Assembly (NCBI GenBank): GCA_965226375.1
Contig: CBDDCX010000008.1
Span: forward strand, 800,001 to 864,000
Direction: 5' to 3'
DNA length: 64,000 nucleotides
Source: Longimicrobiales bacterium
GTDB taxonomy: Bacteria; Gemmatimonadota; Gemmatimonadetes; Longimicrobiales; Gaopeijiaceae
How positions within the stretch are numbered: position 1 is the first letter of the stretch; each line of letters opens with the position of its first letter. The translations under genes were made by a program, and so were the position numbers. Positions 2,558-46,866 of this stretch are shown piece by piece. Below the pieces are notes generated by a model that saw only the letters and a list, made by a program, of their open reading frames with translations, made no database searches and had not been told where the DNA came from.

Positions 2558-2854
2558 TAGAGGTCTGTGGAAGGAGTACAGTGGGTCGCGCGACCCGCGC
2601 CTTCGGCGCGGGTGCCCCGGGTCTTGCGAGGCTCAGAGTAGGAACGACGACGAGTCGTAGCAGGGCTACGGCGAGGAGGAGAGACACCCTATGAGACCGC
2701 AACCCCCCTGTGCCCTCCGGGTTAGGGCGGCGAGGGCCCATCGCGGGTGTTGGCGCTCCTCCCCGATACTACAGCACCGCGTCGTCGCGCCGCCTACGCG
2801 CTGGACCCTCGGCGCTCCTAACGCGACCCACTGTACTCCTTCCACAGACCTCTA
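2558..2854. mobile_element. MITE-like element A (297 bp, perfect 33-bp terminal inverted repeats, TA ends, no transposase)
   Basis: tagaggtctgtggaaggagtacagtgggtcgcg (2558-2590) is the exact reverse complement of 2822-2854. Confidence 0.85.
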
Positions 2855-3352
2855 ATGCGCTGCCCTGAATGCGATGCGACGGAGAACAGGGTCGTCGACA
2901 CGCGAGATAGCCGCGGAGGACGCGCCGTCAGACGGCGTCGGGAGTGCTCGGTGTGCAAGGCCAGGTTCACGACCTACGAGCACATCGAGGAGAGGCCGCT
3001 GCTCGTCTCGAAGCACGACGGCCGGACGGAGAAGTTCGACCGGGCCAAGCTGTTTCGCAGCATTTCGATCGCCTGCGCCAAGCGCCCCGTCACGCAGGAC
3101 GACATCGACGCCCTGGTCGACGGCATCGGGGACGATCTGACCGGTCAGCTGAGTTCCGAGGTTCCGGCTTCACGCATCGGTGAATTGGTCATGGAGCGCC
3201 TCGCTCCGCACGACCGGGTGGCCTACATCCGATTCGCCTCCGTCTACCGGAACTTCCAGGACATCGGTGAGTTCCAAGAGGTGGTCCAGGACCTGAATAC
3301 GCGGGAAGAGGCGAAGGTCCGGTCGCGAAATCAGGAAGAACTCCCGCTCTGA
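2855..3352 (+). CDS. nrdR: Transcriptional repressor NrdR
   Basis: MRCPEC...VVDTRDS...RRRRECSVCKARFTTYE zinc ribbon, ATP cone, AYIRFASVYRNF. Confidence 0.96.
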   Translation: MRCPECDATENRVVDTRDSRGGRAVRRRRECSVCKARFTTYEHIEERPLLVSKHDGRTEKFDRAKLFRSISIACAKRPVTQDDIDALVDGIGDDLTGQLSSEVPASRIGELVMERLAPHDRVAYIRFASVYRNFQDIGEFQEVVQDLNTREEAKVRSRNQEELPL

Positions 3353-3403
3353 CCCGCCCAGGGTCCGCCTTTTCGGCACGCGTAAGGCACCACACACACA
3401 CGA

Positions 3404-4201
3404 ATGTTGAAGCGAACCCGAAATAAACGGGGCGAGATGCCCTTCCTCGACCACCTGGAAGAACTCCGGTGGCGGATATTGTGGACCCTTCTGGCCGTCG
3501 TTCTGGGGAGCGTGGCGGGTTTCGTGCTCGTCCTCGAGTTCGGCGTGCTGGAGATTCTGCTGGCACCCCTCGAGGCCGTCATCGGAGAAGGAGAGAAGCT
3601 CAAGTTCTTCTCCCCGACCGAGCCCTTCTTCCTGGTTTTGAAAATCGGTGTCCTGGTGGGAGTGATCCTCGTATCGCCCATCATCGTCTACCAGATCTGG
3701 GCCTTCTTGTCTCCGGCCTTGGAGCGTCACGAGAAGAGGGCGATCATCCCTGCCCTGTACATGGGCCTGGTGCTATTCGCGGCCGGCGTGACCATGTCGT
3801 ACGTGGTCGCTCTTCCGGTTACGCTGCGGTTCCTGCTCTTTTTCGGTGAGGAGTATTGGGACCCCATCTTGCAGGCGGGCCCGTATCTGGGCTTCGTGAC
3901 CAAGCTGCTGGTGGCTTTCGGCGTGCTCTTCGAGTTGCCGGTGGTGATCATGATCCTCTCGGCATTGGGGCTGGTCACGCCCGCTTTCCTCAGGAAGAAA
4001 CGGCGCCACGCCATCGTCGTGATCACGGTGCTTGCCAGCTTCTTGAGCCCGGGCGACGTGGTCACCGTGACGGTGATGATGATGCTACCGCTTGTGCTCC
4101 TGTACGAGTTCAGCATCCTGCTCTCGGTTCTGATCTATCGACGCCGGGAACGGCATGAGATCGGCGGCGATCCGCCCGACGGATCAGTAGAGACCGGATG
4201 A
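3404..4201 (+). CDS. tatC: Twin-arginine translocase subunit TatC
   Basis: EMPFLDHLEELRWR, YQIWAFLSPAL, FELPV motifs; multiple TM segments. Confidence 0.95.
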   Translation: MLKRTRNKRGEMPFLDHLEELRWRILWTLLAVVLGSVAGFVLVLEFGVLEILLAPLEAVIGEGEKLKFFSPTEPFFLVLKIGVLVGVILVSPIIVYQIWAFLSPALERHEKRAIIPALYMGLVLFAAGVTMSYVVALPVTLRFLLFFGEEYWDPILQAGPYLGFVTKLLVAFGVLFELPVVIMILSALGLVTPAFLRKKRRHAIVVITVLASFLSPGDVVTVTVMMMLPLVLLYEFSILLSVLIYRRRERHEIGGDPPDGSVETG

Positions 4202-7194
4202 TGCTCGAGGCTCGGCTCGCCGGTCGCCTCCGCTGTTGGCTCGCTGTCGTTGGAATCTTGGGGGGCGGGTTGGCTGTGTCCGCCCCACTCTCGGCTCAGG
4301 CCGTGGAAGAGGAGGTCGATTCGGCCCGGATCCGGATTCTCGAGCAGCTGGACCGGCTCGCCAAGCCGCCCGGCGTGGACTCGACCCTTTTCCGGGACTC
4401 CCTGAGGGGCCGTGTGCCTCGCCGTACTCCGCCCCCGGCGACGGCGGACACTTTCCTGGCAAAGCTTCTCGAGCTTCCGGGCTACTCGGTGGCCCGCTAC
4501 GAGGGAGCCCAGGCACGCTTCGACGCGACCGACGAACGCTTGATCCTCATCGGCGCGGAGGGATCGCCTGCAAAGCTCAACCAGGGGCGTGAGCGCATCA
4601 CCGCTGCGGATACCATCAGCATGGCCGACTCTTTGGTGTGGACGGCCGGCGAGACCATCACGGAGAGGCCCGGCGAGGAGCCGGTGCGTAGCTCGAATAT
4701 CATCTACGACCTGAGGCAGGGCAGAGGGTCCGCGTTCGACGCTCACACCAAGCTGACCCAGGGTGCCACATGGGTCATGAACGGAGATTTGCCGGCCATC
4801 CTCCCCGACACCGTGTTCGGCCACGACATCAACTTCACCTCATGTGAAGAGGAGGAACCGCACTATCACTTCGCGGCCCGGGAGCTCAAGGCGATCGGAG
4901 GGAGCTGGCTGGTGGCCCGCAACGTCACGCTCAACTTCGGCGATGTGCCCGTACTGTGGCTCCCCTTCATCTTCCAGAGCACGGAGACCGGAAGGCGCAG
5001 CGGGATTCTGCCCATCCGTGTCGGCGTGAACGACATCGTGCGTACGTCGGCGGGGCAGACGCGGAGAGTGTCCAACGTCGGGTTCTTCTGGGCCATCAAC
5101 GACTACTCCGACGCCACGATCGCCATGGACTGGTGGAGCGACAACTTCACGTCGTTGACCGGGGGGTTTCGGTATCGAAACACTCAGAAATTCATGGACG
5201 GACGGGCCAACGTGCGGCGGTTCTGGAGGGTGGACGGCGGCAGGGAGCTCTCCTTCAACGTGGGGCAGAACTGGCAGATGGACGAGCGCACCTCCCTGCG
5301 CGTCTCCGCTCGCTACGCTTCGAGTTCGCAGTTCGTGAGGCAGAACTCGTTCGACCCCAGAGAAGTCACCCAGTCCATCAACTCCGAGGGAGGCCTCAAC
5401 CGGCGCTTCGACTGGGGCTCGCTGTCTCTGAGCGCCAACCGCCGTCAGTTCCTGAGCGACGATCGGGTGGAGATGACGCTGCCCACGGCCAACTTGTCCC
5501 TCAAGACGATTACGCTCTTCAAGGCGCCGGAGAGCCGCGCCAGGTTCTTCAACAACATGACGTGGTCCGGGAGCGCCCGGTTCAACAAGAGCACCGTCGA
5601 CCGGGCACCGCAGGCCGATTCCACTTTTTCCGAGAGCCTGGCCGACCGGAAGAACGAGAGCGGCAGCGTGAGTAGCTCGTTCAACCTCGGAGCCTTTTCG
5701 TGGAACCAGAACCTCAACTACAGAGGTTCGGGCGTGCTGGACGTGCCTGCATCAGTGGCGTTCGCGGGCGATACCTTGGGGCCGATTCCCATCGAGTTCG
5801 TAGACAAGAGTCAAGCCGACATCATGTGGAACATGTCGTTCAACTATCAGCAGCGACTGATCGGAAGTACGACTCTGACACCCGATCTGAGCATCTCCGG
5901 CAGCTCGAAGCGTTCCGACGACATTCCCGAGGCATCGAGCTTCGTGTCGGGCCCTCGTCGAATCTCTTTCGGCGCCCGCCTGAAGAGCGATATCTACGGG
6001 TACTATGGCGGTTTCGCGGGATTCGAGGCGATCCGTCACAAGATCTCTCCGTCGTTCACCTATGCCTATGCGCCGGAGATCATCCCTTCGCTCCTTCAGG
6101 AAACGGTCTTCGGAGCGCGAGAAGCCAAGGCCAGGAACGTGCTCAGCTTTGGGCTCAACCAGACGTTCGAGGCCAAGCGCCCGGACGATGGGACCGAGGA
6201 GGAGCTCGAGGAGGATCTCGAGGATCCCCTCAGCCTTCTGGATGACCCGTTCGCGTCGGACTCGCTACAGGATGCCAGGGCCGACTCACTGGCGGCCGAG
6301 GCCGAGGCGTTGGCGCTCCGCAGAGAGGAACGTGATGCGCAGGGCGGGCCCGAGCGGCTGCCCGCCTCACGGATCCTGAACCTGTTGTCGCTCCGGACCA
6401 GTGTGATCACCTACGACTTCGTGCGCGCCAGAGACGACGACGACGTTCTCCGGGGATTTACCACGACCCGTCTCCAGAACCAGATCAGCTCCGACTTCCT
6501 GCGCGGAATGACCGTGTCCGTGGAGCACGACCTGTTCGATGAGGACGAAGAGGGGAAACGGGCTTTCGCGCCTCTTCTGTCTCAGCTCAACTTCAGCTTT
6601 GCCATGAGCAACACCTCGGGTGTGCTGCTGGCCCTGGGCAGGCTGTTGCGAGGCGGGGACGACGAAGAAGAGGTCGAGGCCGACGCTGCCCCCCGCACAC
6701 CGCAACCGGTGGTGACGCCCGAGGGGGATACGATTCCGGTCTTGGATGAGGATCCTGACGACCTGGATCCTCTTCTGGACGATCTGGGATTGACCGACGT
6801 GTCGGCCGTGGTTCCTAGTTCTGGTTCGCCGGAGGAGAGAAGGCGTGCACGTACTCGAGGGGCTGCGGGTACCTGGTCAGCCAACTTCAACTACTCCCTG
6901 CGCCGGAACCGGGACGTGAATCTGCCGGCCAGCCAGCTGCTCCAGGTGGGGCTCCGCCTCCGCCCCACCGAGCTGTGGAGCCTGACCTGGGGAACGTCCT
7001 ACGACCTCGACGTCCGGAGCTTCACGGATCATCGCATCCGGCTGACCCGAGACATGCACCGCTGGAACGCGAACTTCGACTTCATGCAGACCGCCACGGG
7101 GAACTGGAGCTTCAGCTTTCAAGTGTCCCTTACCGACAACCGTGATCTGAAGTTCGACTACGACCAGCGCAGCTCGGACATCTTGAACAGATAG
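4198..7194 (+). CDS. lptD: Putative LPS-assembly outer-membrane protein LptD
   Basis: Signal peptide; FTSCEEEEPHYHFAARELK, VPVLWLPF, RRSGIL motifs; C-terminal beta strands (LTRDMHRWNANF). Confidence 0.8.
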   Translation: MMLEARLAGRLRCWLAVVGILGGGLAVSAPLSAQAVEEEVDSARIRILEQLDRLAKPPGVDSTLFRDSLRGRVPRRTPPPATADTFLAKLLELPGYSVARYEGAQARFDATDERLILIGAEGSPAKLNQGRERITAADTISMADSLVWTAGETITERPGEEPVRSSNIIYDLRQGRGSAFDAHTKLTQGATWVMNGDLPAILPDTVFGHDINFTSCEEEEPHYHFAARELKAIGGSWLVARNVTLNFGDVPVLWLPFIFQSTETGRRSGILPIRVGVNDIVRTSAGQTRRVSNVGFFWAINDYSDATIAMDWWSDNFTSLTGGFRYRNTQKFMDGRANVRRFWRVDGGRELSFNVGQNWQMDERTSLRVSARYASSSQFVRQNSFDPREVTQSINSEGGLNRRFDWGSLSLSANRRQFLSDDRVEMTLPTANLSLKTITLFKAPESRARFFNNMTWSGSARFNKSTVDRAPQADSTFSESLADRKNESGSVSSSFNLGAFSWNQNLNYRGSGVLDVPASVAFAGDTLGPIPIEFVDKSQADIMWNMSFNYQQRLIGSTTLTPDLSISGSSKRSDDIPEASSFVSGPRRISFGARLKSDIYGYYGGFAGFEAIRHKISPSFTYAYAPEIIPSLLQETVFGAREAKARNVLSFGLNQTFEAKRPDDGTEEELEEDLEDPLSLLDDPFASDSLQDARADSLAAEAEALALRREERDAQGGPERLPASRILNLLSLRTSVITYDFVRARDDDDVLRGFTTTRLQNQISSDFLRGMTVSVEHDLFDEDEEGKRAFAPLLSQLNFSFAMSNTSGVLLALGRLLRGGDDEEEVEADAAPRTPQPVVTPEGDTIPVLDEDPDDLDPLLDDLGLTDVSAVVPSSGSPEERRRARTRGAAGTWSANFNYSLRRNRDVNLPASQLLQVGLRLRPTELWSLTWGTSYDLDVRSFTDHRIRLTRDMHRWNANFDFMQTATGNWSFSFQVSLTDNRDLKFDYDQRSSDILNR

Positions 7195-7309
7195 GGAGAT
7201 CCCGCCCCCGCCGCGCCCGTGTCTTAGCGGATATCTTGGCTGTCCTCTTCCGAGGACGATTTGGGCATGGCTGTCTCCGAAACCCCTTGATCTATGCGGT
7301 TCTCGGTTT

Positions 7310-7325
7310 TGGTATCGGTTGTGCA
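7310..7325 (+). promoter_or_regulatory. Candidate sigma-54 (-24/-12) promoter
   Basis: TGGTATCGGTTGTGCA has GG-N10-GC spacing, about 70 nt upstream of the lipoprotein start. Confidence 0.4.
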
Positions 7326-7394
7326 TTGGGGTCGGGTGGAGGATCGCCGGGATCCGAGAGACCCGGCGCGGACCCAGCGTGAGGTAGATGAATC

Positions 7395-8519
7395 ATGTGG
7401 AAACGGTTCTTTGTGGTGGTTGGGGCGGCTCTGTTGCTGGGCGCCTGTGACAACGATACCACCGTGTACGTTCCCGTCGACGACTTTCCGGCTCCGCCGG
7501 AGGGACTCGATGGCGAGTACTTCAACCAGGCGGTTACGCTCCAGTGGTTTCTGGGGGCCCAGTGGAACGGCGAGTCCTTCCGCGTCTACGGGCGTCGTGT
7601 AGGCGACGCCACCTTCCTGTTCATCGCAGAGGTGACGAGCTGTGCCGACAGCGCCTGTGAGTACACGGACACCAACATCGTCGAGTCGGTCGGATACGAG
7701 TACTTCGTCTCGGCTGTCGATCCCTTTACGGGTGCCGAGACCGACTCCGATAACGTGGTCCTGGTTGCGGTACCGTCGTTCAGTCCACCGCCCGTTCCGT
7801 CCGGCTTGGAAGTGGTGGCTCTGGACAACACCAACTACCTCCGCTGGAGCGATAACGCCCGTTCAGCAAGCGATTTTTCCCACTATAGGGTGTATTTGCT
7901 GACGGATGGGGGCTCGACGCCTCTCGGCGAGACCGACTCCGAGGGTTTCTTGGATGAACTCGCCGAAAACGGCGTCTCTTCGGTGTATGTGGTGTCCTCC
8001 GTGGACGTCTACGGACACGAGAGCTTGGACAGCTTCGAGAACACGGCTACGCCCCGGCCCGACTTCCGAGGGGAGTTACTGCTCTCGTTCTCGGACGATC
8101 CGGCTCGCTCCGGCTTCCGGTTCGCCGAGTCAGATCAGGACGATCCCATCGTGGACGGGACTTCGCCCGCAAGACACTTTCGTCTCGAGACGGATGCCTT
8201 GGGCTGGTGGCTCGTGCCCGGACCCGCAGCGGAGGTTTTCCCCGAAGGCTCCTGCTCCACGGCCTTGAAGTGCGGGGTGGCAGCCGACCTACAGTGTCAG
8301 GATTGGACGACCGCCCCGACCTCGGGGTACAGCGGCGCGGACGTGTTCCTGGAGCCCGAACTCTCCTATATGCTGCGCGTGGTGGGCGACGATGGCCAGC
8401 TACACTACGGCACCATTCGGGTGGCCCTGTTGGGCGCTGATCAGACCGGTGCGGAGCTCATGATTTTCGACTGGGCCTACCAGCTCCAGGCCGGAAACCC
8501 CCAGTTGGCGGGTCGCTGA
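7395..8519 (+). CDS. Lipoprotein with two fibronectin-III-like segments, function unknown
   Basis: SD GAGGT; lipobox LLGAC; PAPPEGL..VTLQW..YFVSAVD and PPVPSGL..LRW..YVVSSVDVYGHES patterns. Confidence 0.75.
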   Translation: MWKRFFVVVGAALLLGACDNDTTVYVPVDDFPAPPEGLDGEYFNQAVTLQWFLGAQWNGESFRVYGRRVGDATFLFIAEVTSCADSACEYTDTNIVESVGYEYFVSAVDPFTGAETDSDNVVLVAVPSFSPPPVPSGLEVVALDNTNYLRWSDNARSASDFSHYRVYLLTDGGSTPLGETDSEGFLDELAENGVSSVYVVSSVDVYGHESLDSFENTATPRPDFRGELLLSFSDDPARSGFRFAESDQDDPIVDGTSPARHFRLETDALGWWLVPGPAAEVFPEGSCSTALKCGVAADLQCQDWTTAPTSGYSGADVFLEPELSYMLRVVGDDGQLHYGTIRVALLGADQTGAELMIFDWAYQLQAGNPQLAGR

Positions 8520-8542
8520 CGACGCGAGCCCAGGTCGGGTCC

Positions 8543-8584
8543 GCCCGACTCCCCCGGTGGTTTTGGTCATCGGGGGCGTCGGGC
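8543..8584 (+). terminator. GC-rich stem-loop after lipoprotein gene (terminator or mRNA stabiliser)
   Basis: gcccgac-t-cccccggtgg / tcatcggggg-c-gtcgggc arms; no clear U tract. Confidence 0.45.
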
Positions 8585-8727
8585 CGCTAACGGCGTCTAT
8601 CCCCTTGTGTTCCGGGCTGTTGCAGGCAGATTAGTGCTCTTCATTCCGATGCTTCGCGTCTGAAGTCCCGCGGCGTGATCCGTGAACGTGCGGGTGGGTG
8701 GGAAGACTCGAGTGCGAGCGTGAGTAC

Positions 8728-10788
8728 ATGAGCGTAGAAGCGCTAAAAGAGCAGGCCCGGGGCCACGAACAGAACGAACAGTGGCAAAAGGCACTGGACC
8801 TGTATATCAAGGCCATGGACCGGATGTCCGAGGAGGACGTTCCGGACATCGGCCTGTATAACCGGGCCGGCGACCTGGCGACCCGGACAGGTGCTTCCAC
8901 TCAGGCTGTGAGCTTCTACGAGCGGGCCGTCGACTCCTACGTCGAGGCTGAGCTTCCCAACAACGCGATCGCCGTCTGTAAGAAGGTGATGCGTAACCTG
9001 CCGGATCGTTACTCCATCCACCTCAAGATCGGTCAGATACGCGCGGCTCAGGGTTTTATCACCGATGCTCGTGCGAGCTTTGTCACTTATGCGGAGCGCG
9101 TACAAGCCGATGGGGATATCGACGAGGCTTTCCGGGCCCTGATCGAGTTCGTGGACTTGGCACCCGACGACTACGAGATCCGTCAGCTCCTGGCCGCCCA
9201 GCTTGCCCAACATGAGCGTGTGACCGAGGCCGTCCAGCAACTGACCGGTGCTCACCACATCATGGTGGGGCAGGGAATGGTCGAAGAGGCCGCTCAGGTC
9301 GAGACCCAGATCCTGGAGTTGGACCCCGACGCGAGCCTCGGAGCCCCGCCTGCATCAGGCGTCGCCGCGGGCGGTGACGATGGTCTGGCGGAGCTGGACT
9401 TCGACGACGCGGGGGCCGATGAGACGGCTGCACCGGGTGAGATCGAGGGGGACTTCGCCGGACTCGAACTCGGGGATGGGGAGGATGACGGAACACCGCT
9501 CCCGACGTTCGACTTCGACGAGGTGGGCGATGCGGATCCGGGGATCGACGGCGAGGGCGAGCCCGAGGAGGTCGAGCAGGTCGAGGTCCAAGACGATCTG
9601 ACCGCAGATACGGGTGACCTGAGCCTCTCACTCGACGAAGAGGACGAGGATGAGGATGCGGGAGGGGCTCTTACCGACTTGCCCCTGATGTCCTTCGACG
9701 ACGAAGAGCCGGAGGCGACCGAGGCACCGGAGAAGGAGGTCGAGCTGGACGCGGCGGCCTTCGGTGAGGCGGACCATGGCGACAAGGAGGTCGCGGAGTA
9801 CGTCGAGGGTGCCGAGAAGATGCCGGCAGTCGAGGCGGGCCTCGAGGGACTCGACCAGGTCGAGGAATCCGACGCGGAAGAGGCCGTCGAGGCGGCAGTC
9901 GAAGAGTCGGTGGCCGATGCCAAAAAAGAGGAGGCCGCCGCGGAGCACGAGGCCCTTGCCGCAGAGGGAGATTTCCTGGGAGCCATCCAAGCGCTCTCGT
10001 CCGTCGTCGAGGCGGAACCGGACGAACAAGACCACCATCAACGTATGGTGGAATATGCGTTCCGCTCGAATGATTCGAGCGCCCTGGCAGAGGCCTACGT
10101 GGGTCTTGCCGAGTGCCTGCAACGGGCTGGTCAGGACCAGCGCGCCAAGGCCGTGTTCGAGCAGGCCCTGACGTCGGATCCTGCGAACGAGAGGGCCAAG
10201 GCGGGATTGGGTAAGCTCGGAGAAGAGGCGCCGGCCGAGGCGGCTCAGGAGGTCTCTTCGGCCGAGTCCTACGTGGATTTGGGCTCCATGCTTCTCGGGG
10301 ACGACAAGGAAGAGAAGTCGACCCGATTCGTAGTGGCTTACGAGGAGCCTACCGGAGACGAATCCGCGGACTTCCAGAAGATGCTCTCGCAGTTCCGGGA
10401 GAAGGTGTCCGAGAACATCGATGCCGACGACGTGACCGCTCATTATGATCTGGGCACGGCGTTCCGGGAGATGGGCCTTTTGGACGAGGCGATCGCCGAG
10501 TTCCAGCAGGCGCTCCGCGCGTCGGTCGATCACCTGCCCACGTACGAAATGCTCGGCCAGACCTTCCTCGAGAAGAATGAACCTGAGGCCGCCTTGCGAT
10601 CTCTGACCCGCGCCCTGAACGCGCCGTTCGAGATCGAAGACGAGCTCATGGGCATCTATTACTACCTGGGCCAATCCCACGAAGCGGTTGGGAACAGGGA
10701 CCAGGCGGTAGAGTTTTACGACAGAGTATTCTCCCTGGATATCAACTTCGCGGACGTCACGGAGCGGCTGCGGGCCCTCCGGGACTAG
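8728..10788 (+). CDS. TPR protein with long acidic low-complexity linker
   Basis: N-terminal TPRs, D/E-rich middle, C-terminal TPRs (HYDLGTAFREMGLLDEAIAEFQQAL). Confidence 0.85.
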   Translation: MSVEALKEQARGHEQNEQWQKALDLYIKAMDRMSEEDVPDIGLYNRAGDLATRTGASTQAVSFYERAVDSYVEAELPNNAIAVCKKVMRNLPDRYSIHLKIGQIRAAQGFITDARASFVTYAERVQADGDIDEAFRALIEFVDLAPDDYEIRQLLAAQLAQHERVTEAVQQLTGAHHIMVGQGMVEEAAQVETQILELDPDASLGAPPASGVAAGGDDGLAELDFDDAGADETAAPGEIEGDFAGLELGDGEDDGTPLPTFDFDEVGDADPGIDGEGEPEEVEQVEVQDDLTADTGDLSLSLDEEDEDEDAGGALTDLPLMSFDDEEPEATEAPEKEVELDAAAFGEADHGDKEVAEYVEGAEKMPAVEAGLEGLDQVEESDAEEAVEAAVEESVADAKKEEAAAEHEALAAEGDFLGAIQALSSVVEAEPDEQDHHQRMVEYAFRSNDSSALAEAYVGLAECLQRAGQDQRAKAVFEQALTSDPANERAKAGLGKLGEEAPAEAAQEVSSAESYVDLGSMLLGDDKEEKSTRFVVAYEEPTGDESADFQKMLSQFREKVSENIDADDVTAHYDLGTAFREMGLLDEAIAEFQQALRASVDHLPTYEMLGQTFLEKNEPEAALRSLTRALNAPFEIEDELMGIYYYLGQSHEAVGNRDQAVEFYDRVFSLDINFADVTERLRALRD

Positions 10789-10951
10789 TGGACTGTATCT
10801 GATGTTTGGTAGACACCGAGAGTGGCGAGGCGCCCGATCCGGCAAGGCAGGACGACGAGTAATAGCAGGGCTATTGCGAGGAGTCCTAACGAAGCCGGGC
10901 GGGATGCATCGCCGCTCGAATGTCATCACAACATCGGATACAGTCCACTAG
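10785..10951. mobile_element. MITE-like element B (167 bp, CTAG-ended 22-bp inverted repeats, foldback structure)
   Basis: ctagtggactgtatctgatgtt (10785-10806) vs aacatcggatacagtccactag (10930-10951), 1 mismatch; nested internal stems. Confidence 0.8.
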
Positions 10952-17359: not shown

Positions 17360-17420
17360 TGGACCCTCGGCGCTCCTAACGCGACCCGCTGTACTTCTTC
17401 AACAGCCTTCTAGAGGTCTG
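17360..17420 (+). repeat. Orphan right end of MITE A followed by the first 10 nt of a left end
   Basis: 17360-17412 matches 2802-2854 at 48/53; tagaggtctg (17411-17420) equals 2558-2567. Confidence 0.85.
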
Positions 17421-42514: not shown

Positions 42515-42537
42515 GTCCGCAGCAGAATTCGATCTTG

Positions 42538-42574
42538 TAACGCGACCCGCCGTAATTATTCAATAGCCTTTTAG
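42538..42574 (+). repeat. Degenerate right end of the MITE A family upstream of hrcA
   Basis: taacgcgacccgccgtaattattcaatagccttttag matches 17377-17413 at 32/37. Confidence 0.7.
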
Positions 42575-45574: not shown

Positions 45575-46641
45575 AAGGGGGTATTCCCTTAAGTCCACCG
45601 ACCCCAAGATATAGTGGTTACCGGGGCTCTGCGGGCCGTTTCCCACGTCCGGTGCCGAGGTAAAGGGCCGAAGCTGGCGTGGGAGCACACTGAACAGCCT
45701 GCTCAAGCAAGCGGTAGAACAACAGGCCGCGAGCCCGGGATGTGCGTCGGTTGAAGCGAAAGGTGAACTCGTCCAGATAGTAGGGGAGGTGTTCGCGGGC
45801 GATCCCTCCTTGGAGGGTTCCGAGGACCCAGCGCTTGAGGAGAGACGCCACCCGATGTACGGCCGACATGAGCACGTGAGCGGGATCGCCGGAGGTCGAG
45901 AGGTTCGTGACCGTGTGGCGAAAGCCCAGTTTGGCGAGTCCCTGATAGCTTGGCCATCCGTCGGTATGCACCGTGCTTGCCGGTGCGATGCTATCCTTGA
46001 CGAAGCCTCGCAGAACCGGAGCGGAGAGGTCGGGCACCCAACGCAGCCGTATTCTCCCGATCTTGCGTCCGTCGACCTCGGCGGCGATCGCGACGATGGC
46101 CTTCTTGATCGTCTCGCGGCCCCGCACTCCAGCCTCCACGCCCCCGACATAGCTCTCGTCCACTTGCACAACGCCGCTCAGCTGGTCGCGATCCGGTCGG
46201 ACCATGGCCCGGCGGAGCTTGTGGAGCCAGACCCACGCTGTCTTGTAGCTTCCCAGTCCGAGCACGCGCTGGAGCCCGAGAGCATTGGCTCCGTATTTCT
46301 GGCTCGTGAGCTCCCAGGCAGCGAGAAACCACAGACGCAGGGGCGAGCGCGTGCGGTGGAACACGGTTCCCGCCAGCACCGAGGTCTGCCTTCGACAGTG
46401 TGGGCAGACGAGACGCCCCCGCGATGCTCGCCAGACCTCTCCCAACCCGCCACAGCCCACGCACACAAACCCTTCCGGCCAGCGCAGACCCTCCACGTAC
46501 TCCAGGCATGCCGCATCGTCGGGGAAGAACTCGTCCAGCTCCAGCCGCGTACGGGGATAGTCCACGCCGCCACGGAGCTGAGAAGCCGGAACCGCCATGA
46601 CCACAACATGTAGTGGGCGGTGGACTTAAGGCAATACCCCA
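45575..46641 (-). mobile_element. IS1595-family insertion sequence (ISSod11-group-like), about 1.07 kb
   Basis: IRs ggggtattcccttaagtccaccg (45578-45600) and cggtggacttaaggcaatacccc (46618-46640), 1 mismatch; direct repeat ttgacggga at 45566-45574 and 46642-46650. Confidence 0.93.
45618..46598 (-). CDS. IS1595-family transposase (intact ORF)
   Basis: RWPEGFVCVGC..CPHC zinc ribbon, VQVDESYVGG, VHTDGWPSY, VHRVASLLKRW, YLDEFTFRFNRR. Confidence 0.95.
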   Translation of the reverse strand: MAVPASQLRGGVDYPRTRLELDEFFPDDAACLEYVEGLRWPEGFVCVGCGGLGEVWRASRGRLVCPHCRRQTSVLAGTVFHRTRSPLRLWFLAAWELTSQKYGANALGLQRVLGLGSYKTAWVWLHKLRRAMVRPDRDQLSGVVQVDESYVGGVEAGVRGRETIKKAIVAIAAEVDGRKIGRIRLRWVPDLSAPVLRGFVKDSIAPASTVHTDGWPSYQGLAKLGFRHTVTNLSTSGDPAHVLMSAVHRVASLLKRWVLGTLQGGIAREHLPYYLDEFTFRFNRRTSRARGLLFYRLLEQAVQCAPTPASALYLGTGRGKRPAEPR

Positions 46642-46866
46642 TTGACGGGATTCTGGCCAACATCCAAACGGAGGTGCTGATCCCCTTTCTCGCGAGCTTC
46701 GCCGTGGCCCTCGAGCGGGACGGGTGGATGATCCTGAGCGGCATCCTGTACGAGGAATGGTCTCGGCTGGCCGACGCTGTCACCGAGGCGGGTTTCTCTC
46801 TCGAGGCGATGGACAGCGACGGGGAGTGGAGAACCGGGTGGTTCACGATCACGCAGGGATCCTGAT

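Follow-up and report, generated by a model that had tools for sequence, protein, structure and literature searches.

Introduction

The available excerpts of two sources (PMC10969869; PMC11602168) show that prokaryotic MITEs are usually described as internally deleted insertion sequences (ISs), that their ends serve to classify them, and that conservation is seen chiefly inside a single genus. How ERIC-like repeats move was called unresolved in reviews of 2007-2008 (PMC2759123; PMC2229807, in part). ERIC itself (IRU or RU-1), a 127-bp enterobacterial MITE, is reported from Enterobacteriaceae and Vibrionaceae in the review passages available, and its RNA is described in such passages as processed by RNase E in an orientation-dependent manner (PMC2229807; PMC10969869). 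The RUP element of Streptococcus pneumoniae has been linked to its partner IS630-Spn1 by the same inference from likeness between terminal inverted repeats (TIRs) as is used below (PMC2229807, in excerpt), and in vitro transposition of ISY100 gave TA duplication in 34 of 39 cases in the portion of the report available (PMC2170065). Here we describe mini-transposons in which the conserved part is the interior, found across many phyla, and in which the ends are exchangeable.

Results

The window is the whole 64,000-nt stretch analysed (positions 800,001 to 864,000 of contig CBDDCX010000008.1, assembly GCA_965226375.1) from a Longimicrobiales bacterium, referred to as G000. It contains two elements, A and B, which share a module detected with covariance model R1, and two fragments of A-type elements:

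2558..2854, no strand assigned: element A, a doublet MITE of 297 nt that has ends of the IS1182/IS5 type and a tail-to-tail pair of modules
2558..2590, plus strand: left TIR of A, 33 nt
2592..2618, no strand assigned: small hairpin insert in the left arm of A
2624..2702, plus strand: module 1 of A (R1, 53.6 bits, E 1e-11)
2732..2810, minus strand: module 2 of A (R1, 41.5 bits, E 2e-8)
2822..2854, minus strand: right TIR of A, 33 nt
10786..10950, plus strand: element B, a 165-nt monomer MITE with IS630-type ends
10786..10806, plus strand: left TIR of B, 21 nt
10830..10907, plus strand: module of B (R1, 71.6 bits, E 2e-16)
10930..10950, minus strand: right TIR of B, 21 nt
17360..17412, no strand assigned: solitary right end of an A-type element that has lost its module
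42536..42573, no strand assigned: decayed remnant of an A-type end

Both elements are short (165 and 297 nt), non-coding and bounded by terminal inverted repeats, and R1 has 23 matches in G000, so that they belong to a multi-copy set; the original prediction of different MITE families was borne out, the ends matching different transposase families (IS630 and IS1182/IS5-type). Element A is inserted at a TA immediately 5' of the nrdR start codon and element B within the stop codon of its upstream gene, and the TA target often lies within (C)TA(G/A) and at stop codons. Orthologous empty sites exist in two congeners, G001 and G002 for element A and G002 for element B, and the insertion sites vary between congeners. 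A and B are non-autonomous insertions at TA. Thirteen of 16 G000 elements have TA on both flanks and three have it broken, a pattern in which TA duplication and blunt insertion are indistinguishable because TA is palindromic. Unequal flanking dinucleotides are common at MITE copies outside G000, while an autonomous IS630 used for comparison has perfect TA duplication in 20 of 20; the broken duplications at MITE flanks may reflect age or a different reaction path.

The small hairpin insert of A is missing in 274-nt copies of this type; where it is present, the loop lies 81 nt from the end in place of 58 nt, and the insert should, by prediction, form a side branch when the strand is folded. Small hairpin inserts with GAA or GTA loops were also observed, mostly on the module strand.

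The 33-nt core reported at 2646-2678 and 10851-10883 is common to both elements, with 29 of 33 positions identical and exactly four differences, all compensatory (a C-G and a G-C pair become two A-T pairs in the 8-bp stem). Its diverged minus-strand copy in A is present at 2756-2786, and no other 33-mer on either strand of the window matches more than 22 of the 33 bases. This 33-mer is one variant of a larger common unit of ~78 nt, as delimited by the covariance-model matches, which combines an outer stem with an internal loop of AAGGC/AACGC(A/C), a stack of tandem G·A pairs and a hairpin that varies. The module is a strand-specific fold-back whose most constant part is the internal loop, and the fold z-scores are -8.6 for A and -12.1 for B. 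In B, the module has the outer stem, the loop strands AAGGC (10844-10848) and AACG (10888-10891), two tandem G·A pairs within the core, and a loop-to-left-end distance of 58 nt. Module 1 of A includes the core, with its 5' loop strand at 2639 and a degenerate 3' loop strand; module 2 includes the diverged copy, and its loop is separated from the right end by 58 nt, counted along the module's own strand.

The AGG loop had been taken as invariant, which is true of these two copies alone: in a set of 116 distinct inner hairpins, the loop is 3 nt long in 49 (AGC in 15, AGG in 9, ACC in 8, others in the rest) and 4-7 nt long in 67. The supposed invariance of the GACGA/GAGGA flanks also failed, since the G·A stack is kept in only 16 of the 62 hairpin matches of a loop-only pattern. 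In 43 distinct copies picked by the model, the G·A columns are intact in 39-43, and the single pairs that lie between tandem G·A pairs read C-G in 30 copies and G-C in 12.

As the original prediction held, the structure is conserved independently of TIR type. Covariation is strong, with 86.5% of cells paired compared with 61.9% after shuffling and two-sided changes at 24 of 26 pairs; in paired columns, G·T is commoner than A·C (142 vs 48 and 40 vs 22). Covariation in inverted repeats can arise from arm-to-arm copying without selection. The comparison with Rfam matched no family: nothing lay over either element at E up to 10, and at E up to 1 nothing lay over the module in those of 20 scanned loci that contain related elements. 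A kink-turn reading was rejected by eye, there being no 3-nt bulge ahead of the G·A pairs. Neither a published description of the module nor a dedicated enzyme was found.

Model matches occur in 39 of 61 relatives and in genomes of many phyla; across the phylum the distribution is patchy (18 of 121 genomes). Plasmid searches with the A TIR and with the core gave weak matches only. Viral contigs gave no match to the full-core pattern; a looser pattern gave 121 matches, none of them with an outer stem, and served as a control. In read-assembled contigs of one run, depth was ~1400 over element A and ~8 at unique parts, a figure that sums other organisms and is not a copy number.

The distance from the loop to the end of the element is narrowly set, at ~55-58 nt. 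Of 149 cores whose outer repeat could be detected, drawn from ~43 TIR clusters, 133 have a distance of 53-60 nt. It is 56-60 nt in 18 of 20 model matches with a detectable repeat (27 examined), and 37 of 50 metagenome hairpins found by the loop alone fall at 54-62 nt. It is independent of inner length (r=0.10), and there is a second, shorter class of ~27 nt that is ERIC-like. The module is carried by MITEs, as had been proposed, but 'cargo' is too weak a term: a module kept at a constant spacing from the end of the transposon suggests that it serves the propagation of the element itself. The fixed spacing is partly expected from common descent and the in-register likeness of the TIRs.

In the complete genome G063, a near-identical inner arm and core occur under both TIR types at equal spacing. 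The outer 28 nt are 71% identical between copies in G063 and 63% in G064, compared with 95% and 92% between left and right within one copy; core identity between copies is 97% and 93%. Within one genome the ends diverge symmetrically and the module stays constant. Across phyla, the replacement of arms and inner hairpins leaves no recognisable likeness, yet the loop keeps its letters and its spacing. The paired elements of G000 that have the module (n=16) fall into few size clusters, whereas those without it are of unique length in 11 of 11 cases; most coreless derivatives are short and may be unable to move by reason of size alone.

The ends of A and B had been called unrelated. This holds in so far as each is nearer to the IS family it belongs with, sharing as many as 19 of 22 positions, and fails in that A-type and B-type TIRs agree at 12-14 of 22 positions in register. 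The B TIR agrees at 16/22 with IS630 of G001, and sister subfamilies of B at 19/22 with IS630 of G000 and G030. The A TIR agrees at 15-19/22 with the locus L314 (IS1182/IS5-type, DUF772), and the proteins reach 262-271 bits against NF033551, whose cut-off is 270, and also pass NF033581. The module was found in 0 of 30 autonomous IS630 loci and 0 of 30 DUF772 loci, and neither A nor B is an internal-deletion derivative of its cognate IS in these 60 loci. G000 (90% complete) has no match to DUF772 (PF05598), DDE_Tnp_1 (PF01609) or DDE_Tnp_1_2, which leaves element A without a resident driver on record.

Of the 14 relatives rich in the module, 12 have IS630 or DUF772 transposases, as do 8 of the 22 that lack it; these relatives are not independent of one another. 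A Y1/HUH transposase was found in only one of the 14 module-rich relatives and not in G000, and reverse transcriptases do not track the module (7/14 module-rich and 7/22 module-free relatives). No partner protein recurs among 245 neighbouring ORFs (185 + 60, chosen by a heuristic), which belong to unrelated families with single IS630, integrase-core, IS110 and HNH matches. A candidate autonomous carrier in G000, marked by a TIR pair 1.7 kb apart, was set aside because the enclosed ORF was not transposase-like by eye, and an IS630 next to a MITE in locus L004 proved to be a separate insertion at the end of the MITE.

The module strand shows no general bias with respect to transcription (15 sense, 9 antisense, p=0.31), and since it does not favour the transcribed strand, the suggested role in mRNA processing or stability is not favoured. 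The monomers of G000 have a replication-strand bias of 12:2 (p=0.013); it was not repeated in the complete genomes G063 and G064 (44:41 and 27:35, the skew being taken from 20 sampled 20-kb windows in each), and we therefore discarded it. A model based on lagging-strand ssDNA might have predicted such a bias.

Discussion

The recurrence of the module in mini-transposons of many phyla, and in part in E. coli ERIC, suggests that it helps the elements to spread. Our preferred reading, which we hold to be about evenly balanced between right and wrong, is that a single-strand scaffold promotes MITE spread while the ends drift between transposases. The module would be a cis-acting scaffold, active when one strand is exposed and folded back, and would work more probably as DNA than as host mRNA. 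It would raise the chance that the element is picked up in trans by a DDE transposase, such that copies with an intact module would multiply and copies that lack it would not. A change in either TIR could be copied to its partner through fold-back pairing; the ends could therefore drift in register, at constant length, between TA-targeting transposase families, and the module would be kept while they move from one family to another. In a doublet such as A, each end would have its own correctly spaced module, the two lying on opposite strands. The candidate binding partner may be the transposase, a host protein or none.

We count in favour of this scaffold the empty sites, the TIR matches, the module-free IS loci, the covariation, the C-G/G-C swaps between G·A pairs, the fixed spacing across TIR clusters, the swap of ends in G063, the divergence of the outer arm against the constancy of the core, the size clusters of module-bearing elements in G000, and the co-occurrence with transposases. 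Against it we count the lack of a partner among the neighbouring ORFs, the covariation that arm-to-arm copying alone can give, the lack of DUF772 in G000, the shortness of most coreless derivatives, the share of the fixed spacing that common descent and TIR likeness would explain, the broken TA flanks and the absence of replication bias in the two complete genomes.

It seems to us unlikely that the module is an RNA element retained because it acts on host transcripts (as a site for an RNase or an RNA-binding protein, or as a barrier to exonucleases), which has been proposed for ERIC in Yersinia, and that the TIRs only deliver it. The elements are mostly downstream of genes, a rough ORF heuristic giving divergent flanking genes in only 6 of the 82 cases with genes on two sides, the module strand of B folds better as RNA (-104 vs -81 kcal/mol), and the RNase E processing of ERIC fits as well. 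Such an element would, however, leave unexplained the fixed distance to the transposon end and the modules on both strands of doublets; the module strand is unbiased, the sites are not conserved between congeners, and assembled RNA contigs yielded no usable signal.

The ruler-like spacing with its two classes (~27 and ~57 nt), the unequal flanking dinucleotides at many copies, the high and symmetric turnover of the outer arm and the small hairpin inserts could also reflect a dedicated putative enzyme (HUH nuclease, reverse transcriptase or other) that would bind to the loop and establish or renew the ends a constant distance away, IS-like ends being captured later. We judge this improbable, as the distributions of Y1/HUH transposases and reverse transcriptases given above do not follow the module, no enzyme family recurs next to the elements, and the TIRs are close to those of ordinary DDE elements.

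That the module has no function, and is one old, widely spread MITE lineage in which arm-to-arm copying gives covariation, mismatches ignored by repair persist and length is inherited, is decidedly improbable: in-register likeness of IS630-type and IS1182-type ends would allow switching at unchanged length, symmetric substitutions indicate frequent conversion and the distribution is patchy, but the loop letters and spacing outlast replaced arms and inner hairpins across phyla, C-G and G-C swap between G·A pairs that stay intact, copies within a single genome differ much less in the core than in the outer arm, and ERIC has the same loop with a different interior.

If the scaffold drives propagation, it provides a testable cis determinant for the movement of ERIC-like repeats; it would also unify many unnamed intergenic hairpin repeats, some of which reach from dozens up to at least 149 copies in a genome, and offer a selfish element a route to change its transposase. 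Such elements can yield strong covariation, which is a warning for RNA-motif searches. More tentatively, and with a good deal of doubt, we propose a pan-bacterial non-autonomous superfamily that includes ERIC and is defined by the folded single-strand module and not by the ends. The module would be a ruler-positioned cis element for snap-back or cruciform mobilisation by unrelated DDE transposases (IS630, IS1182/IS5 and others) in turn, possibly with a host or mobile factor that reads the loop.

Comparison with known systems

The REP/REPIN-RAYT system (HUH transposase acting on folded ssDNA; PMC3733652, as far as its available text goes) is an analogy in the way it works, with strand-specific hairpins, inverted doublets and intergenic spread. 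A and B differ in having DDE-type TIRs and not GTAG-tagged REPs, and the Y1 transposase expected of REP/REPIN is missing from G000 and 13 of the 14 module-rich relatives. YPAL (RU-2) of Yersinia, 167-168 bp long (PMC2759123, in excerpt), is in the size class of the monomers and forms a long hairpin, but its sequence as printed there has, by eye, no paired AAGG/AACG loop.

Element A agrees with IS1182/IS5-type (DUF772) MITE derivatives at 19/22 TIR positions and differs from them in its doublet of modules, which is missing in the 30 autonomous loci. Element B resembles RUP in its IS630-like TIRs and TA target; unlike IS630-family MITEs such as RUP, it has an interior that did not arise by deletion from any of the IS630 loci tested (0/30) and that is also found in MITEs of another transposase family. 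Compared with ISY100, TA duplication is imperfect in part of the MITE copies.

ERIC differs from A and B in length (127 vs 165-297 nt), spacing (27 vs 57-58 nt), interior and TIRs, and A and B have neither the 127-bp consensus nor ERIC-type termini. R1 matches one of 15 K-12 copies (25.4 bits, E 7e-4), over the loop and outer stem only, and misses the rpsB-tsf copy, while a descriptor of the loop finds 5 of the 15, with no other match in 46 kb and ~3 per Mb in controls. Like the module elements, ERIC is an intergenic, TA-flanked long hairpin; by eye, the 15 K-12 copies have tandem G·A pairs, one strand that folds better, and an AAGG/AACG loop ~27 nt from the end. ERIC and the module elements thus share a long strand-biased hairpin, TA ends and the internal loop, the last by the loop criterion defined here.

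Two MITEs in the window carry the same fold-back module

The two 33-nt sequences and the minus-strand copy described in the original prediction are present where it placed them, in the interiors of two MITEs:

2558-2854: element A, a doublet MITE with modules 1 and 2 tail to tail, flanked by a cpoB/ybgF-like gene and nrdR
10786-10950: element B, a monomer MITE that begins within the stop codon of a TPR-type gene and has a polyprenyl synthase downstream

The four differences between the 33-mers preserve pairing, as had been proposed, exchanging two G-C-type pairs for A-T pairs, and no further copy with more than 22 of 33 matches occurs in the window. Both regions fold far more stably than shuffled sequences (z of -8.6 for the A region and -12.1 for the B region), and comparison with Rfam gave no match over either element at E up to 10. 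Because the orthologous sites are empty in two congeners, with a single TA left, A and B are insertions. The site orthologous to window 10786 in one congener (G001:C11 near 896250, L162) holds a different, 17-nt collapsed hairpin at the same stop-codon position, which suggests that it inserted independently at the same TA and later suffered an internal deletion. Element A itself contains a small hairpin insert (window 2592-2618). Inserts of this kind, 20-30 nt long and in many cases with a GAA-type loop, occur in different places within elements and resemble a second layer of tiny mobile repeats; in the source genome (G000) they are also present at the following loci:

C5:252177-252300
C5:45880-46090
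C7:309244-309580
C8:2146126-2146307

Module architecture and covariation

The conserved unit is larger than the reported 33-mer. From the outside inward, it comprises a stem, an internal loop of AAGGC against AACGC(A/C), then two base pairs, as many as three tandem G·A pairs with single C-G pairs between them, and an innermost hairpin of 7-8 bp with a variable loop. The expected covariation was observed in 70 sequences, where paired cells reached 86.5% compared with 61.9% after shuffling and 24 of 26 pairs changed on both sides, with the G·A letters in most rows imposed by the search pattern. Of the 43 distinct copies that the covariance model selected, 30 have C-G and 12 have G-C as spacer pairs between G·A tandems, and each G·A column of the two inner tandems is preserved in 39-43. 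A loop-only pattern matched 124 times in metagenomes, where 8 or more of the 10 outer pairs form in 62 cases and exactly 7 in none; a similar control pattern in viral contigs gave such outer pairing in 0 of 121 matches. The GACGA/GAGGA stack, previously considered invariant, is kept in only 16 of these 62 hairpins, and the most constant part of the module is the loop rather than the 33-mer.

Counted partly by eye, 58 nt separate the loop from the terminal T in element B; module 2 of A has the same distance, as does module 1 in insert-free A copies. Across about 43 TIR clusters, 133 of 149 cores whose outer repeat could be detected have a spacing of 53-60 nt, which does not follow inner length. 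Of 27 model matches examined, 20 have a detectable repeat, and 18 of these show 56-60 nt; among metagenome hairpins, 37 of 50 fall at 54-62 nt. A shorter class, read by eye, lies at about 27 nt. Seven asymmetric members (L044, L061, L078, L082, L076, L116 and L159) have one arm extended by 80-90 nt, partly AT-rich, with module-side spacing still about 57 nt where the outer repeat was found.

Copies in the source genome and across bacteria

The covariance model gave 23 matches in G000 at E up to 0.1. In a TIR survey of this genome, the module is present in 16 of the paired elements (nine of 156-165 nt, three of 274 nt, and one each of 182, 211, 297 and 337 nt) and missing from 11, which all differ in length; the survey also recovered 42 orphan ends. 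One long ORF (a 525-codon open frame) lies between two B-type TIR halves at C8:518591-520331, possibly a MITE-bounded composite unit or two collapsed neighbors. In another genome, G147, five module-bearing units stand in tandem with a 171-nt period (C1:3738530-3739290), alongside further arrays of two and three units.

The exact pattern matched at least 119 loci across several phyla, in genomes labeled Myxococcota, Binatia, Nitrospirae, Planctomycetia, Gamma- and Betaproteobacteria, Omnitrophota, Acidobacteria, Spirochaetaceae and others. Close elements occur in records labeled Longimicrobiales. By the model, 39 of 61 relatives and, phylum-wide, 18 of 121 genomes contain the module; across phyla, 25 of 25 genomes, picked because each had one pattern match, were positive, and the number of matches per genome runs from 2 to at least 149. 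The shared module is a real feature. We found no published account of this loop, or of an interior common to several transposase families, in full-text literature mostly from non-subscription journals; MITE catalogs may list member sequences with the module unremarked.

Strand and nucleic acid form

Because one strand alone carries the G·A tandems and the G·T wobbles, the module functions as a single strand. Its orientation is not biased with respect to transcription (15 sense to 9 antisense among co-directional flanks confirmed with Pfam). With respect to replication there is no general bias either: G000 gave 12:2, but two complete genomes gave 44:41 and 27:35. PMC10085684 describes stable DNA hairpins formed by tandem sheared G·A pairs and GNA triloops. 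Among the inner hairpins, 25 of 49 triloops are A-N-C. Triloops of this type are likewise stable in DNA. We lean towards DNA rather than RNA as the functional form; this is a lean and not a result, because RNA also frequently contains tandem G·A pairs. A host RNA element appears unlikely.

Ends and transposase families

B-type ends match IS630 elements, the resident IS630 of G000 among them, at up to 19 of 22 positions, and A-type ends match IS1182/IS5-type elements equally well (up to 19 of 22). The proposal that different MITE families carry one structure is borne out; calling the ends unrelated was too strong, since A-type and B-type ends are 12-14/22 alike in register. In genome G063, almost identical inner arms and cores occur under both. 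The module is absent from 30 of 30 IS630 and 30 of 30 DUF772 loci, and is therefore not a remnant of the tested elements. These transposases loosely track the module, one or the other being found in 12 of 14 module-rich versus 8 of 22 module-free relatives, which as kin are not independent. Neither Y1 transposase (1 of 14 versus 7 of 22) nor reverse transcriptase (7 of 14 versus 7 of 22) tracks it, and a dedicated enzyme serving the module seems unlikely. Seven of the eleven reverse-transcriptase matches in G000 score equally (C6:336967; C8:98101, 975749, 1776129, 1814373, 1939566 and 2242451) and are probably a recently spread group II intron. The window also holds an IS1595-family element:

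45575-46643: IS1595-family element with imperfect 55-nt TIRs and a flanking 8-bp direct repeat, interrupting a prmA-like gene
45618-46604, minus strand: its ORF (NF033547, 189 bits)

Turnover of the ends and a proposed role

The outer 28 nt are 71% identical among the 12 copies of G063 and 63% among the 11 copies of G064, and 95% and 92% identical, respectively, between left and right within a copy; thus, changes at one end are copied to the other. Core identity among copies is 97% and 93%, reflecting either selection or shielding, and neutral descent with conversion is improbable. Autonomous IS630 in G011 has perfect C-TA/TA-G flanks in 20 of 20 copies; among MITEs, 3 of 16 G000 elements and many from other genomes have unequal flanks.

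Insertion, TIR identity, absence from the tested autonomous ISs, covariation, spacing and symmetric end turnover are established. We give about an even chance to the module being a cis scaffold that would favor mobilization by a DDE transposase in trans, in which fold-back pairing would let the ends drift in register from one TA-targeting transposase family to another.

Comparison with ERIC

We compared these elements with 15 ERIC copies from E. coli K-12. By eye, ERIC shares the loop, placed about 27 nt from its end, and also has tandem G·A pairs; in 15 of 15 copies the better-folding strand is the one that carries the loop. The module-bearing elements fail as members of ERIC, and the covariance model detects 1 of 15 copies, through the loop and outer stem only. 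The loop descriptor matches 5 of 15 copies at the element center and nowhere else in 46 kb, against 5-7 matches per 2 Mb in simulated controls; as the copies are related, this counts as one family-level observation. The module-bearing elements resemble ERIC, and the two may share a common ancestry.
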